Below, in pieces: positions 1-35,330 of a DNA stretch of 38,646 bases (positions are counted from its first letter, which is position 1; every line of letters starts with the position of its first letter). Below the pieces are notes generated by a model that ran no database searches, was not told the origin of the DNA, and saw only the letters and a list, made by a program, of their open reading frames with translations. The position numbers were made by a program, and so were the translations under genes. The stretch is from a virus. The DNA lies in the IMG/VR virus record IMGVR_UViG_3300027609_000001, positions 1-38,646 of that record; one strand, 5' to 3'.

Positions 1-99
1 TTTTTGGAGAGTTATCAAGCTATCAAGAATCACATTTTGTGAGTTGAAGAAGCTTATAAATGGCGCATATATTTCGCGGACAAGGATCCCATTAACGTA
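1..99. repeat. Terminal direct repeat, identical to 38548..38646. This is the overlap of a circular or terminally redundant genome assembly; unique length 38,547 bp.
   Basis: Base-by-base comparison: tttttggagagttatcaagc...ggatcccattaacgta occurs at both contig ends (99 nt). A minus-strand reading frame is continuous and in phase across the junction. Confidence 0.95.
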
Positions 100-30251: not shown

Positions 30252-30659
30252 TTATGAAGCTAGGGTTGCGCGAAGGTTGATGACCCACTGATCATTAGTG
30301 ATCCGTGGAACCTCTGCGAACTTCCAGCCAACCGACGCATTAAGCGCCAATGGGCCGTCATAGATTGGTGGACGATAGATGAACGATGCGCTATAGCCAT
30401 CTTGATCTATACAGGCATAAGCCTCCATTCCTACGCAAAAGATGTTGTACACATCTGCGCCAAGAGATGAAGCATTAGGACTGATTGAGCCAATTGATGA
30501 AACCAAGAAGCGAAGGTTACCAATTGCGCCCCATTCTGAACGGAGTGCGTTCATAGGAGCAGGATATTGGTTCTTTTGGATGAAGCCGTTAACGTTATCC
30601 AAGTTTCCGATCAATTGGGTGCTGCACAGTGCGAAATAAGCATCTCGAACTGGTGCGGT
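30252..30659 (-). CDS. Major capsid protein (HK97-fold pattern), exon 5 of 5
   Basis: TAPVRDAYFALCSTQLIGNLDNVNGF...EWGAIGNLRFLVSS...ATLAS* is the C-terminal part of an HK97-type MCP. It begins right after the intron's terminal G. Confidence 0.8.
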   Translation of the reverse strand, partial: TAPVRDAYFALCSTQLIGNLDNVNGFIQKNQYPAPMNALRSEWGAIGNLRFLVSSIGSISPNASSLGADVYNIFCVGMEAYACIDQDGYSASFIYRPPIYDGPLALNASVGWKFAEVPRITNDQWVINLRATLAS

Positions 30660-30868
30660 CATTCTGTTACTTTTAGACCCCTCGCGAGGCGGGCTAACCT
30701 CTTCGGATCAGCCTCTGCATGTTTCCATGCAGTTCAGACTATCGCTTAGCCTTTTCGGGCCCCCACTCACTTAGTCGTTCACGGTGGCTTGCGCCTTCCG
30801 CCTTGTCACCGGCTCTTACACTACGGCTTCCAAGTCAATCAGAGTGGGTTTTAATTCAGCTATGCATA
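30660..30868 (-). mobile_element. Group I intron 4 (209 nt, no ORF)
   Basis: P1: exon AAUUCGGU| pairs with intron GCUGAAUU, with U.G at the cleavage site. P3: CCCACUC/GAGUGGG. R element GAACGACUAAG and S element GCGAUAGUCUG (P7). GAAA-capped hairpin UGCAUG-GAAA-CAUGCA. Ends ...AGUAACAGAAUG. Confidence 0.8.
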
Positions 30869-31057
30869 ACCGAATTTATCTTCGCCCTCAATATTGTCCA
30901 TTATAGTATATGCATTATTATTTAGTAATGCACGTACAACTGTGTCCACGTCTGAACGGGTGATTTCCGTTGGGTTATCACCATCTACGCCGCCGGTACA
31001 GTTAATGAACGAAGCGGTACCTGCCAGCATGTCGCGGGTAAGAACATCTTCAGTTTG
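30869..31057 (-). CDS. Major capsid protein, exon 4 of 5
   Basis: 63 codons: QTEDVLTRDMLAGTASFINCTGGVDGDNPTEITRSDVDTVVRALLNNNAYTIMDNIEGEDKFG. Confidence 0.75.
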
Positions 31058-31254
31058 CTAGTTGTTACTCCCTTTCGGGGGATAAGTCGTTTCCGCTTAT
31101 CTCAGAACCTTTCGTCGCTCTGTTCGGACTATCGCATCTCTTTCGAGTTCTCGGGTTTAGTCTCTCAGGCTGCCTTTACGCTTGCCCCTTGTCGCCTTAG
31201 CTTGCGCCTTAGGCTTCCAAGTCGATTACCGAGAATTTATACTCCGCCAATTTA
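31058..31254 (-). mobile_element. Group I intron 3 (197 nt, no ORF)
   Basis: P1: exon ACUCCGU| pairs with GCGGAGU (U.G at the site). P10: UUG with exon CAA. P3: UCUCGG/CCGAGA. R element GAGACUAAA and S element GCGAUAGUCCG. Ends ...AACAACUAG. Confidence 0.75.
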
Positions 31255-31312
31255 ACGGAGTGAAACGCCAAGACGAGCTGCGCACTCATTTAATACCGGA
31301 TCTTGATTCTGA
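31255..31312 (-). CDS. Major capsid protein, exon 3 of 5 (58 nt; the first nt completes a split Leu codon)
   Basis: (L)QNQDPVLNECAARLGVSLR. The boundaries are set by the P1 and P10 pairings of intron 2 and P1 of intron 3. Confidence 0.65.
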
Positions 31313-31458
31313 CTATTTGCAATTAACTGTTACTTTTGCGACTATATAATAATATTATTAGAATATAGCGGGGAAACCTCTTCGGATCTCCCTCTCACAG
31401 TTTCCTGTGAGTACAGACTATCGAATCTCTTATCGCTAAGAGCCAATGGGCTTAGTCG

Positions 31459-31487
31459 TTGCGGCTGCCCAACCATTATGTTATAAT
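31459..31487 (+). promoter_or_regulatory. Sigma70-like promoter for the antisense endonuclease gene
   Basis: TTGCGG (31459-64), a 17-nt spacer, then TATAAT (31482-87) with TGt immediately upstream (extended -10). Followed by AGGAG (31510-14) and GTG 31522. Confidence 0.5.
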
Positions 31488-31521
31488 GAGTACCAGTACA
31501 ATTCAGAATAGGAGATAGTAC

Positions 31522-32070
31522 GTGAATCGATATAAATATGAGCGCAAAGAGTATGCGGTGGCGCAAATTGCTTATCTCGCTGGAATTATCGATGGAGAAG
31601 GCTCTATTTATATCGGAAACTTTAGCTGCAATCCAAGGACCAAGGTCCCGTATTACCAAACTAACATCCAGGTTACTAACACCGATAAGGAATTGATCGA
31701 CTGGCTTTACGCTATCTTCGGAGGCCTGGTGTCGAAGCGAACTGCTCGACAGCATGCCGAAAATTCGCGCAAGCAAGCCTATATATGGACTGCGAGTGGT
31801 GAACGCGTGACGCATCTGTGTGAACTCATTTTGCCGTTCCTTATATGTAAGAAGAGGCAGTGTGAGATTATGATCAGAATGCGCAAGACATTCACTCCCT
31901 CCCATTGCGAAATTGGAAGACAAGGAATCAAGCCGCATAGCGCGGAATTGGTCCTGCTTCGTCAGTCGCTGATGGATGAGATGCGTAGTCTTCATATTAG
32001 AACTCACTCTTATAAGAATAATGGTCGCTTGCCTCGGGTTACCATGCCTCAGTTGCTAGAAGAGGTTTAG
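31522..32070 (+). CDS. LAGLIDADG-family homing endonuclease (single-motif, I-CreI-like size)
   Basis: IAYLAGIIDGEGSIYI is the LAGLIDADG motif. KELIDWLYAIFGG and LCELILPFLICKKRQCEIM match typical family blocks. 182 aa. The gene lies entirely inside intron 2, on the strand opposite to the intron and MCP. Confidence 0.85.
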   Translation: MNRYKYERKEYAVAQIAYLAGIIDGEGSIYIGNFSCNPRTKVPYYQTNIQVTNTDKELIDWLYAIFGGLVSKRTARQHAENSRKQAYIWTASGERVTHLCELILPFLICKKRQCEIMIRMRKTFTPSHCEIGRQGIKPHSAELVLLRQSLMDEMRSLHIRTHSYKNNGRLPRVTMPQLLEEV

Positions 32071-32118
32071 GCTTTCCCAGTAATCACCTTTGGTTTATTG
32101 ACGCCTCAGCAAAACCCA

Positions 32119-32321
32119 AGCGTCACTTGCTCATTAAGCTGAATGTATTGACCGTAAAACGAGATCTTCGCATCGATGTCCACAGCTGTGAGATTGGTCG
32201 CAGGAGGAGTTATTCCCGAGTTTCCAAGAGGCACAATTGCGGTTGGTAGCGGATTGTAGCGACGCATACGGAGGGTGGTCCCACCATTCCGTGGCATCTG
32301 CTTCAACATAGCTGGTATTTT
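32119..32321 (-). CDS. Major capsid protein, exon 2 of 5
   Basis: KIPAMLKQMPRNGGTTLRMRRYNPLPTAIVPLGNSGITPPATNLTAVDIDAKISFYGQYIQLNEQVT(L) carries the HK97-type MCP pattern P.N.G.T..FRRY..L......L.eG.tP....L.......A....YG. Confidence 0.8.
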
Positions 32322-32556
32322 CTATCTGTTACTTTTGTGACCATTCACATTGGATATTAACTCTCATTGAATGGCGGGGAGCTTCTTCGAGACTCCCTCT
32401 CGTTGTCGCCAGCGAGATCAGACTATCACATCCCTAATTTACTCAGGGTCGCATCGTTTAGTCGTTCACGGTCAATGCTATTGCAAAGTTCCGCCTTGTT
32501 GTCCTCGAGGGATTTCCAAGCCAATTAGACGCGATTTTAGATCCACAAAGTCGCTA
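32322..32556 (-). mobile_element. Group I intron 1 (235 nt, no ORF)
   Basis: P1: exon GAUCCAU| pairs with GUGGAUC (U.G at the site). P10: UUU with exon AAA. R element GAACGACUAAA and S element GUGAUAGUCUG. Ends ...AGUAACAGAUAG. Confidence 0.8.
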
Positions 32557-32649
32557 ATGGATCATGTTCGGCACAGGAACTGAGAGCAACTTGTAGGAGA
32601 AGCTCTGTTGCACAGGGGCCGGGAGACTAGATGTAGTCGTAATAGACAT
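32557..32649 (-). CDS. Major capsid protein, exon 1 of 5
   Basis: ATG 32649 with AGGA 7 nt upstream. MSITTTSSLPAPVQQSFSYKLLSVPVPNMIH, then an in-frame stop immediately inside the intron. Confidence 0.7.
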
Positions 32650-32719
32650 AATTTTTTCCTTGAACTGGAAAATAATTACTCCTTGTAAGCCTATGACAAG
32701 CGTGGTCACCTAGTGCGCT

Positions 32720-33541
32720 ATGCCTACAAAGTATGGTGGCGAGCCACTTTTACGCCAAATGAGGGTTGCGAAGACCTCTAAACGCAGTAAAATTGTAGTA
32801 GGAGACCATGGAGAATGTAAAGGAGTTAGGGATATTTGCGTGAAAAGGATTGCAGAAGATTTTAAACCTGGCCAGATATTGGGCAAATGGACTGTTATAA
32901 GATTCGAAAAGAATGGGGTCCACAGGGCTTGGAGATGCAAATGTATATGCGGAGCCGAACATTTAGTTAGAGAAGTTTATTTATGGGATGGAAGATCTAC
33001 AAAATGCAAAGAATGCGCAAAGCGAGATAAGAATTTTCACAGGTTTGACTTTAAATATGAGATAGGACAGAGATTTGGAACATTGGTCATTACTAAAAGG
33101 TTTAAGAGCAACGATGGCCCCAGGTCGAAGAATAAGTTCGAGTTAGTATGTGACTGCGGCGGAACTGTAACAGTTGATACAGCGCGTATAAACGCTGGAA
33201 AAGTAAAAATGTGCTATAAATGCACTCACAAGCTGGTTGGACAACCTCGACATGGTATGCATGAATCATCTACATATTCCACGTGGGAGCAGATGAAGCG
33301 CAGATGTTACGCTATTAATTATCCTCGATACAAAGACTATGGAGGAAGGGGAATAATCGTTTGCGAAAGATGGCATACATTCGACAACTTTTTGGCTGAC
33401 ATGGGAGAGAAGCCTAATGGGCTTCAGATCGATCGAATAGATAATGATGGACCATATTCTCCTGAAAATTGCCGATGGGTTACTCCTCAAGAGAATATGC
33501 AAAATCGCCGCAATAGCCCCAAGAATAAGCTTGTTACATAA
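32720..33541 (+). CDS. Free-standing HNH-type homing endonuclease
   Basis: Two G..(L/F)G.(W/L).V....(zinc-ribbon CxC...CxxC) repeats. C-terminus [62 protein letters not shown] is typical of phage HNH endonucleases. Opposite strand to all neighbouring genes. Confidence 0.8.
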
Positions 33542-33574
33542 GGATAATTATCAGACATAAGTTGTCACATAGCA

Positions 33575-33603
33575 GCGGGTGAAAGCTGGAATTATTCACC
33601 CGC
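33575..33603 (+). terminator. Hairpin downstream of the HNH gene
   Basis: gcgggtgaa (33575-83) pairs with ttcacccgc (33595-603), a 9-bp stem. No clear U-tract. Confidence 0.3.
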
Positions 33604-33782: not shown

Positions 33783-33810
33783 GATGGGCGGCCATTCACA
33801 ACCGCCCATC
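33783..33810. terminator. GC-rich hairpin between the scaffold gene and the HNH/MCP region (possible bidirectional terminator or attenuator)
   Basis: gatgggcgg (33783-91) pairs with ccgcccatc (33802-10). Followed by ttgggtt on the plus strand and ucucuuug on the minus strand. Confidence 0.45.
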
Positions 33811-33863
33811 TTGGGTTAGGAAGGGATAGGGAACCACATTCCTAGCGACGAGACTACTACAAT

Positions 33864-34709
33864 TTAATACCCTTTGCGAGACTCATTCGTCTCTGCCCAA
33901 AGTTGCTTCTTCATCTCAGGTGTCAATTTGCCGCTTGCGAAAGCATTCATGCGCGAAATAGGAGAATCTGCGGTGTTTTGAGCTGAAACAGTATTAAGTG
34001 GTCGCGGCTTAGCAGAATTCTTCTGGATCTTCTCGGATTCTTCAGAAGTGGTATTCTGTTGTGCACTACTTTGAGAAGAGTCCTTTACAATGCCATTAAA
34101 CTTGATCGACTTGTAGGCTAGTGAGAGGGCTGCTTCTGGATTACTTGCTGCTGCTTGAAGTCCTGCTACTGCGTCAGGGTCCATACTATGGAGCGTCTTG
34201 ATATTTTCAGCGTTTACCACACTATCAAAATCAGGATACTTCTGCTTGAGACGCATTTCGACTTCCATATATTGCCGCTGTTGCGTGAATGCTTCTAGCT
34301 GCTTCTTAAGTTCCTTTTGCTCTTTAAGCACTTGCGCCAGATGTTTTCCCTCAACAAGGTCATCTGGATTAAGGTTGAAGTCATCCTTCTGGGCGACTTT
34401 GCTCTCTAGCTCTCGGTATCTCTTTTCGAAGTCGTCGCGCTCACGTTGCGCCTTCTCGGCTTGCTGACGCAGCTCGCGGAAGTTTTTAGCTTGAGCGCTT
34501 TCCTTTTCGGGCGCTTGTTGCTGCGCAGGTATCTGAGCTGCAGGAGCTGAAACTTCTTCTTGATGCGCTGTATTATGCTGCGCAGCTTCTTGTATAACCT
34601 GTTCAGGATTCTCATGGACTGGCTCCGGTATTACTGGCTCTTCAGGAGGAAGTGGTGGCATCGCAATCTCCTTGCGCGCCAAATCTTTTCCTACATTGAG
34701 TTGGTTCAT
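33864..34709 (-). CDS. Scaffolding protein
   Basis: 281 aa, AAGGAG upstream. Highly charged E/Q/K-rich coiled-coil sequence upstream of the MCP. Confidence 0.5.
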   Translation of the reverse strand: MNQLNVGKDLARKEIAMPPLPPEEPVIPEPVHENPEQVIQEAAQHNTAHQEEVSAPAAQIPAQQQAPEKESAQAKNFRELRQQAEKAQRERDDFEKRYRELESKVAQKDDFNLNPDDLVEGKHLAQVLKEQKELKKQLEAFTQQRQYMEVEMRLKQKYPDFDSVVNAENIKTLHSMDPDAVAGLQAAASNPEAALSLAYKSIKFNGIVKDSSQSSAQQNTTSEESEKIQKNSAKPRPLNTVSAQNTADSPISRMNAFASGKLTPEMKKQLWAETNESRKGY

Positions 34710-35236
34710 ATGTACTCCTTAGTATTGTCGGGTGTATCTCGTTCTCCGTTGAGCTTCTTGGCGAGCGTGAAAAGCTTTCCCTTCTTAAAGGAGAGCACAT
34801 ACGACAAGAGTTCATGCTCATCGACATGCACTTCGTTCATATTGGCTATGAGGTGGAAGCAGGCGTCCTGGGAAGGGATGGTCCACAGGTATTCAATCTC
34901 TTCGGTGAGATTGTTGTACCGGAAGACACTCTGGTCATAGTCGGGAGTGGGGCAGGTGTGTCGCGAATAGAAGTAATTACGGAATACATTAGGCAAAAGA
35001 CGCTCATTCTTGGTGATAACTACGATGAAGAATTTCCCGCTGTAAAGTTTGCGATCTTTAAGCGCGCAATCAATAAGATTTTGATAATATTCTCGCGTCA
35101 TCTCTTGTTGTAATGCAACCGCAGATAATTCTTGAGCTCCATTCTGGAATAAATCTAATGCCTCTTGTCCAACAGTTCGCCGCTTAGCCGAAGAAGACTT
35201 GGCCTTGGGAGTTTTAGCGGAGTAGGCTTGATTCAT
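34706..35236 (-). CDS. Hypothetical protein (first gene of the structural operon)
   Basis: ATG 35236 with GAGGT upstream. ATGA overlap with the scaffold gene. Confidence 0.45.
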   Translation of the reverse strand: MNQAYSAKTPKAKSSSAKRRTVGQEALDLFQNGAQELSAVALQQEMTREYYQNLIDCALKDRKLYSGKFFIVVITKNERLLPNVFRNYFYSRHTCPTPDYDQSVFRYNNLTEEIEYLWTIPSQDACFHLIANMNEVHVDEHELLSYVLSFKKGKLFTLAKKLNGERDTPDNTKEYI

Positions 35237-35330
35237 ATCACGTACCTCGTATAAGGTGATATTGACGCCGGAAGCGCAGTGCTTCCTAGCATCGAGCACC
35301 TTATGCATATAATGTGAAGGAGAGCAAGCG

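Follow-up and report, generated by a model that had tools for sequence, protein, structure and literature searches.

A putative PacI-like nuclease gene upstream of the intron-bearing capsid gene of a soil phage: a candidate for trans homing of a single intron

The phage considered here is a soil phage that carries a nuclease gene upstream of its capsid gene (MCP), and its capsid gene is interrupted by four introns. The question raised by this locus is whether a free-standing nuclease could have spread introns that bear no endonuclease of their own, and how many of them. An initial annotation of the sequence had proposed that the nuclease cuts intron-less MCP alleles and that all three ORF-less introns accumulated through it by co-conversion. 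We examined this proposal over the whole analysed stretch of DNA, hereafter the window, which is the complete virus record IMGVR_UViG_3300027609_000001 (38,646 bp, terminal repeats present), and over related loci from metagenomes.

The nuclease gene, the capsid gene and its introns

The features of the locus are collected in Table 1. The nuclease ORF occurs in one copy only within the complete 38,646-bp record. It is intact and, as initially annotated, it lies between the scaffold gene and the MCP on the strand opposite to the latter, with 70 bp between its first ATG and the MCP start codon (32649, minus strand). Nevertheless, the true start of the gene is probably the GTG at 32840 and not the ATG at 32720, because homologues begin near residue 49, residues 1-45 have a pLDDT below 50 in the AlphaFold model, and the DNA of the related locus L318 that is homologous to the 5′ stretch of the ORF holds an in-frame stop and is non-coding. 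With the GTG start the gap between nuclease and MCP becomes about 190 bp, like that of the relatives. On the other side of the gene, the stop codons of nuclease and scaffold are separated by 322 bp of DNA with two perfect 9-bp GC-rich hairpins (33573-33602 and 33783-33812), which may be terminators for the converging nuclease and scaffold genes; a consensus terminator scan returned none.

Table 1. Coordinates of the features of the nuclease-MCP locus in the window.
Feature	Position	Strand	Remarks
Intron 4, ORF-less, 209 nt, after codon 182	30660..30868	-	Rfam RF00028, 25.6 bits, E-value 0.0014 (sub-threshold)
Intron 3, ORF-less, 197 nt, after codon 118	31058..31254	-	tblastn and sequence reading
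Intron 2, 806 nt, after codon 99	31313..32118	-	houses the LAGLIDADG ORF
LAGLIDADG ORF in intron 2	31522-32070	+	Pfam LAGLIDADG_1, E-value 3.9e-5; PHROG 5046, E-value 3e-24
MCP exon 2, codons 32-99	32119..32321	-	tblastn and sequence reading
Intron 1, ORF-less, 235 nt, after codon 31	32322..32556	-	Rfam RF00028 sub-threshold; covariation among homologues
MCP exon 1, codons 1-31	32557..32649	-	tblastn with the L040 MCP
Divergent spacer, MCP start to probable nuclease start	32650..32839		homologous L318 DNA non-coding
Sigma-70-like site facing the MCP	32699-32672	-	in the divergent spacer
AAGGAG	32820-32825	+	in the divergent spacer
Putative free-standing HNH-like (PacI-type His-Me finger) endonuclease ORF	32720..33541	+	at most 273 aa, intact; PHROG 374
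Two tandem small beta-barrel and CxC...CxxC zinc-ribbon modules	32870..33229	+	residues about 51-105 and 112-170
Probable C-terminal beta-beta-alpha-metal domain, D-R...Y...N-C-R-W...N..N-R	33239..33517	+	His replaced by Arg239; Tyr246 invariant
Putative scaffold gene, 281 aa	33864-34709	-	nuclease ORF lies between it and the MCP
P200, 200-aa ORF	34706-35308

The exon map of the MCP was obtained by tblastn with the intron-less 315-aa MCP homologue of locus L040, and the junctions were read from the sequence. The gene, on the minus strand, consists of five exons (codons 1-31, 32-99, 100-118, 119-182 and 183-315); on this reading the splice junctions follow a U and the introns end in G. The annotated absence of an endonuclease from three of the four introns holds: the LAGLIDADG ORF of intron 2, antisense to the MCP, is the sole ORF among them, and introns 1, 3 and 4 are ORF-less. 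In most relatives LAGLIDADG genes within MCP introns are likewise antisense, with sense orientation seen only in L011, L072 and L074.

Intron 1 is the closest to the nuclease, at 163 bp from the first ATG of its ORF. None of the introns in the window was detected by Rfam at the gathering threshold, sub-threshold matches being the only ones, and intron 1 presents 19.2 bits against RF00028 (E-value = 0.11), where the gathering score is 50 bits. Among ten homologous introns at codon 31, 26 of the 44 pairs keep their pairing through two-sided changes, and all ten have the U.G pair at the 5′ splice site. Judged by these structural hallmarks, which are present despite the low Rfam score, intron 1 is a group I intron that has no ORF. 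The intact exon 1/exon 2 junction sequence is absent throughout the window genome.

Family, motif and predicted fold of the nuclease

Concerning the protein itself, PHROG families 374, 3377, 2081 and 953, all annotated as HNH endonuclease, match it with E-values from 6e-61 (family 374) to 4e-23. Searches against Pfam and NCBIfam found no family above threshold. The Pfam HNH_3 profile (PF13392) aligned through its positions 12-46 only (E-value = 0.01-0.09); the scores were 12.9-15.6 bits, below the gathering cut-off of 24.8 bits, and five of 68 relatives had an E-value below 0.1. The protein is HNH-like only loosely, and its "HNH" label rests on the PHROG families. Sequence searches of the PDB with protein and profile queries retrieved nothing relevant for the nuclease, while tblastn with the protein gave matches in 1,526 phage records.

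We aligned nine proteins from the slot upstream of the MCP, as well as 68 catalytic domains. At the end of strand 1, where the general-base His is expected, Arg239 (D238-R239) is found in 68 of 68 aligned relatives. Arg239, Tyr246 of the loop and Asn250 are invariant in the 68 sequences, C251 and W253 also stand out in the alignment, and N259 and N262 are conserved; all the invariant residues of the family are retained in the window's nuclease. The structural Asn and the metal-binding Asn/His of the helix are represented by N250, N259 and N262. This subfamily without the catalytic His is a very common, uncharacterised phage "HNH", for which this locus would give a first functional handle.

The catalytic domain was modelled with a pLDDT of 89.7, and its strand-strand-helix unit spans residues 236-264. 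PacI is the best structural match, covering the entire catalytic domain (Z = 5.8, rmsd = 4.2, 85 residues), and it also matches the whole nuclease model (Z = 5.5). Only 11 chains reached Z ≥ 2 for the catalytic domain, Gme HNH, I-HmuI (Z = 2.2) and I-PpoI being among them. Foldseek returned mostly HNH nucleases in the top rows for the catalytic domain, every one with an E-value above 0.2, and no match at E ≤ 0.001 for either the whole model or the catalytic domain. The two zinc-ribbon/beta-barrel modules that precede this domain were modelled by AlphaFold with a pLDDT of 85-93 and resemble Tudor/SH3-like folds (Z = 5-6.8); they are presumed to be the DNA-recognition part. His-Me fingers of the PacI type lack the His and use a loop Tyr instead (PMC5714182). 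Since the best fold match of the nuclease is PacI, the protein is most likely a PacI-like, Tyr-dependent enzyme, its activity being predicted by analogy with PacI.

Alternatively, nuclease activity might have been lost with the replacement of His by Arg, leaving a sequence-specific DNA binder such as a regulator at the divergent MCP promoter. The general-base His is missing from every one of the aligned relatives, His-Me domains with neither His nor Tyr have become DNA binders elsewhere, Smad MH1 for example (PMC5714182), and the gene is divergent to the MCP promoter region. Nonetheless, an invariant Tyr stands in the loop where PacI keeps its catalytic Tyr, and presence in about 10% of loci, rapid turnover and decayed copies (see below) befit a selfish gene rather than an essential late-gene regulator. 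We consider loss of activity improbable.

Turnover of the nuclease slot and of the introns in related phages

No DNA-level relative of the window was found among GenBank phages. A scan of viral contigs with the single nuclease protein as query gave no close relative, a profile scan with the nuclease family, owing to the great breadth of that family, brought up phages that are for the most part unrelated, and with the scaffold protein as query the viral contigs yielded nothing; the metagenome scan was the sole source of close relatives. At least 595 loci in IMG/VR encode an MCP with about 90% protein identity; 209 of them were analysed and reduced to 131 distinct loci, sampled regardless of introns or nuclease.

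Of the 131 distinct loci, 13 have a nuclease homologue at this position, upstream of the MCP and antisense to it, so that the gene is sporadically present at one slot among otherwise collinear relatives. The alleles in the slot are about 40% identical to one another and form clade A (L016, L066, L085), clade B (eight loci) and orphan branches; the window's nuclease is such an orphan, grouping weakly with that of L031. On the MCP tree (codons 195-313) at least nine gains or losses of the nuclease are needed. The closest relative of the window, L318/L319, is 87% identical in P200 and 83% in the scaffold protein, whereas its slot nuclease is only 42% identical overall to that of the window, a level that any two members of the family would show; the recognition modules share about 32% and the catalytic domain 63%. 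The MCP of L318/L319 has its introns at codons 48 and 105 and lacks all four found in the window. L031, which is the next closest phage and bears the nearest relative of the window's nuclease, has the nuclease and no introns, and L076 is also a carrier without any intron.

The slot itself shows a variety of contents. L031 has a second, partial HNH-like ORF in tandem (L031:4824-5390, minus strand), L010 an 80-aa nuclease remnant (L010:1135-1374, minus strand), and L256 a nuclease copy with an internal deletion of 667 nt that keeps the first ~90 nt of the gene (L256:4367-4460); the L256 and L010 remnants fit the usual cycle of invasion and decay. In L053 the slot holds a free-standing ORF (L053:3711-4358, minus strand) which weakly resembles the window's LAGLIDADG protein, by tblastn only (E-value = 1e-10), and has no Pfam or PHROG match. 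L053 also bears a codon-31 intron, and the two may be a second kind of nuclease-intron pairing. Two further ORFs, both unknown, were found occupying the slot in relatives.

Intron content is equally changeable. The compact intron family to which these introns belong occupies about 30 codon positions of the MCP, from codon 9 to codon 274, across ~130 distinct relatives. A single MCP can hold four or more introns (L009/L012, L066), and the intron sets of close relatives can be entirely different, as with the window (31/99/118/182) and L319 (48/105). In L187 (4407-4633), L179, L172, L186 and L063 an ORF-less intron is inserted after the second base of codon 9, 26 nt into the gene, and between L165 and L187 this codon-9 intron and the nuclease gene replace each other.

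A separate observation concerns a short insert of 27-38 nt directly after MCP codon 88, which is present in at least 19 related phages (L018:4940-4967, L019:5433-5470, L003:4471-4507 and L026:4909-4939, for example) and absent from the window. In none of 14 listed inserts is the length divisible by three, and many contain in-frame stops. The insert starts with a P1-like hairpin, in which the last exon bases pair with bases of the insert and a U.G pair lies at the junction; its final base is invariably G. In the subtype adjoining a codon-97 intron, the 3′ part of the insert pairs with exon codons 92-94 with compensatory changes: 96.9% of the cells are paired vs. at most 55% with slid partners, with two-sided changes in three pairs. 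In 12 of 13 cases a full-size member of this intron family follows 9-34 codons downstream, the 13th ending at a contig end, against a background of 34 of 109 (p = 3e-5). From these sequence features the insert may be a mini group I intron that lacks the core and relies on the ribozyme next to it. Translational bypassing of the gene-60 type was considered for these inserts and is unlikely, since no landing codon matches the take-off GGU.

Which introns could travel with the nuclease

Comparison of the MCP loci of relatives, a check proposed in the initial annotation, gave a divided answer. The intron at codon 30/31 is found in 3 of 13 nuclease carriers vs. 2 of 117 non-carriers (p = 0.007), and any intron within codons 1-60 in 4 of 13 carriers vs. 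8 of 115 non-carriers (p = 0.02), so carriers are enriched in intron 31. On the contrary, the sites of introns 2, 3 and 4 of the window (97-99, 117-118 and 181-184) show no association with the nuclease (p = 1.0 each), and neither does the presence of any intron whatsoever (8 of 11 carriers vs. 43 of 88 non-carriers, p = 0.2). The intron-31 excess rests on five intron-bearing loci. Intron 31 is always present in clade A (3/3) and never in clade B, it occurs without the nuclease in L190, L187, L186 and L053, and it requires eight changes on the tree of MCP codons 195-313. A phylogenetically paired test offered only 5-9 contrasts, too few to give it power, and 0.6 of these on average pointed in the same direction, with intron 31 mostly unchanged. 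Once ancestry is considered the association is not established, because the independent contrasts are few and mostly without an intron-31 difference. Variants at MCP codons 32-34 (K32N in L086 and L087, P34A in L076 and L063) seemed more frequent in carriers without intron 31 and were given no weight, as K32N is shared by the sister locus L256, where little of the nuclease gene is left.

Three pairs of sister loci that differ in the nuclease delimit the stretch that moves with it. L165 and L187 are 98% identical elsewhere, L087 and L256 are 96.6% identical upstream, and the third pair is L072/L079. Identity falls abruptly in all three pairs where the nuclease gene has its 3′ end, and the divergence fades by MCP codons 33-42. 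Specifically, identity over codons 1-9 is 67-70% in the two close pairs and 63% in L072/L079, while from codon 43 it is 100% in the two close pairs and 96-97% over codons 43-70 in L072/L079. Judging from these breakpoints, the mobile unit seems to run from the nuclease gene across the spacer to a point 100-125 nt inside the MCP. The diverged stretch takes in the intron sites at codons 9 and 31 and leaves out those at 99, 118 and 182.

Within the window itself the picture is less sharp. Its MCP (30252-32649) and that of L319 (8326-9712) differ at eight of 315 residues, and their nucleotide identity rises from 73% (codons 1-15) to 95% (codons 261-315). This 5′-to-3′ gradient has no sharp edge at codon 31, which counts against homing of intron 1, and it would be expected if gene conversion had recurred in the 5′ two-thirds of the MCP, where introns are plentiful.

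These observations weigh heavily against the initial proposal in its full form, namely that cutting of the intron-less MCP and co-conversion spread all three ORF-less introns and produced the four-intron gene. Its attraction is the layout, a nuclease adjacent to a gene with three ORF-less introns, which matches the published psbA/F-CphI case (PMC6083498). Still, besides the lack of association at the sites of introns 2-4, introns are present in 55 of 118 nuclease-less loci, some of which have four or five, and are scattered over the many sites of the family; the conversion stretches end by codon 42; and the closest relative combines a nuclease in the slot with a wholly different intron set. 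The full version is already disfavoured, and we give it very little credence. The claim that the nuclease explains the many introns of the gene does not survive, all the more as carriers such as L031 and L076 are intron-free. The nuclease does not account for the intron accumulation, since introns 2-4 lie outside the conversion stretch and vary independently, and intron 2 has its own LAGLIDADG ORF.

What remains of collaborative homing concerns intron 1, for which both the enrichment at codon 31 and the conversion stretches reaching codons 33-42 speak. The reading that we favour, with moderate confidence, is that of a selfish, free-standing homing-type nuclease for which cleavage is predicted and which could co-convert intron 1 only. 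The gene sits in the divergent spacer that precedes a highly conserved capsid gene, at a position where insertions recur, and its product would join two fast-evolving zinc-ribbon/beta-barrel recognition modules to a PacI-like His-Me finger, in which the invariant loop Tyr, and not a His, would initiate cleavage. During mixed infection the nuclease would cut or nick a nuclease-less relative within MCP codons 1-35/40 or in the spacer, and repair with the carrier genome as template would transfer the nuclease gene and, along with it, the 5′ end of the MCP. Intron 1 could be carried along, because it lies inside the conversion stretch, and if the cut site spans codon 31 it would also protect the carrier. 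The outcome would be trans or collaborative homing, and for intron 1 alone this is plausible on circumstantial sequence evidence.

A simpler account is an ordinary free-standing homing gene directed at the spacer or at its own slot when empty, with no functional tie to any intron, the intron-31 excess being due to ancestry and linkage. The paired test carries no signal, intron 31 is missing from 10 of the 13 carriers, L031 included, and several intron-31 loci lack the nuclease; L165 and L187 differ in the nuclease and not in intron 31, which is almost identical with or without it; and the slot is also taken by other genes (the LAGLIDADG-like ORF of L053 and the two unknown ORFs). This account, however, leaves aside the raw association and the constant presence of intron 31 in clade A, and the diverged stretches of the three sister pairs enter the MCP instead of ending in the spacer. 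We regard it as possible, if on the unlikely side. A more elaborate version of the homing reading, which we put forward tentatively and hold to be somewhat less probable still, is that the nuclease lineages are each matched to a different ORF-less intron site at the 5′ end of the MCP, i.e., codon 31 (the window, clade A and L065), codon 48 (L318) and codon 9 (L063). They would then represent several co-evolving collaborative-homing pairs, built on PacI-type, Tyr-using enzymes with rapidly diversifying zinc-ribbon modules.

As a single locus, the nuclease gene is the expected kind of selfish gene. Collaborative or trans homing is one of the ways proposed for endonuclease genes and introns to merge into composite mobile elements, and it has been shown experimentally in few phage systems only. 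The uncultured soil-phage family studied here offers hundreds of natural capsid-gene variants, ~30 intron sites and turnover of the slot between close relatives, so that the reach of endonuclease-driven gene conversion could be measured directly.

The nearest parallel to the arrangement is cyanophage S-PM2, in which a group I intron of psbA that lacks an ORF and the adjacent free-standing F-CphI constitute collaborative homing (Zeng, Bonocora & Shub 2009, via PMC6083498, PMC3984707). The window likewise has an ORF-less intron close enough to the nuclease for co-conversion. F-CphI, though, has an Endo VII motif, and experiments showed that it cuts where the intron is inserted, whereas the window's enzyme is a predicted PacI-like variant that lacks the His; in contrast to that of F-CphI, its gene precedes the capsid gene and lies on the other strand, and most carriers lack intron 31. 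In T4, mobE promotes homing in trans of the defunct I-TevIII intron of nrdB (Wilson & Edgell 2009, PMC2790892). It is also a free-standing gene of the HNH family, and in both cases homing of the nuclease would co-convert a neighbouring immobile intron; for mobE inheritance was measured in crosses, while the case for the window is built on the stretches of divergence between three pairs of sister loci and on an association that is weak. Concerning the enzyme, I-HmuI and Pfam HNH_3 share with it the motif D-x...N...N-L-R-W-x-T...E-N and are phage-borne as well, but in the window the His after the Asp is Arg, and the catalytic domain is C-terminal where theirs is N-terminal. PacI (PDB 3m7k/3ldy; His-Me finger group 20, PMC5714182) resembles the nuclease in that both lack the His and have a Tyr in the inter-strand loop, despite 20% identity and no match at the sequence level. 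PacI is a small dimeric restriction enzyme, whereas the nuclease of the window has two additional zinc-ribbon/beta-barrel modules and behaves as a mobile phage gene.
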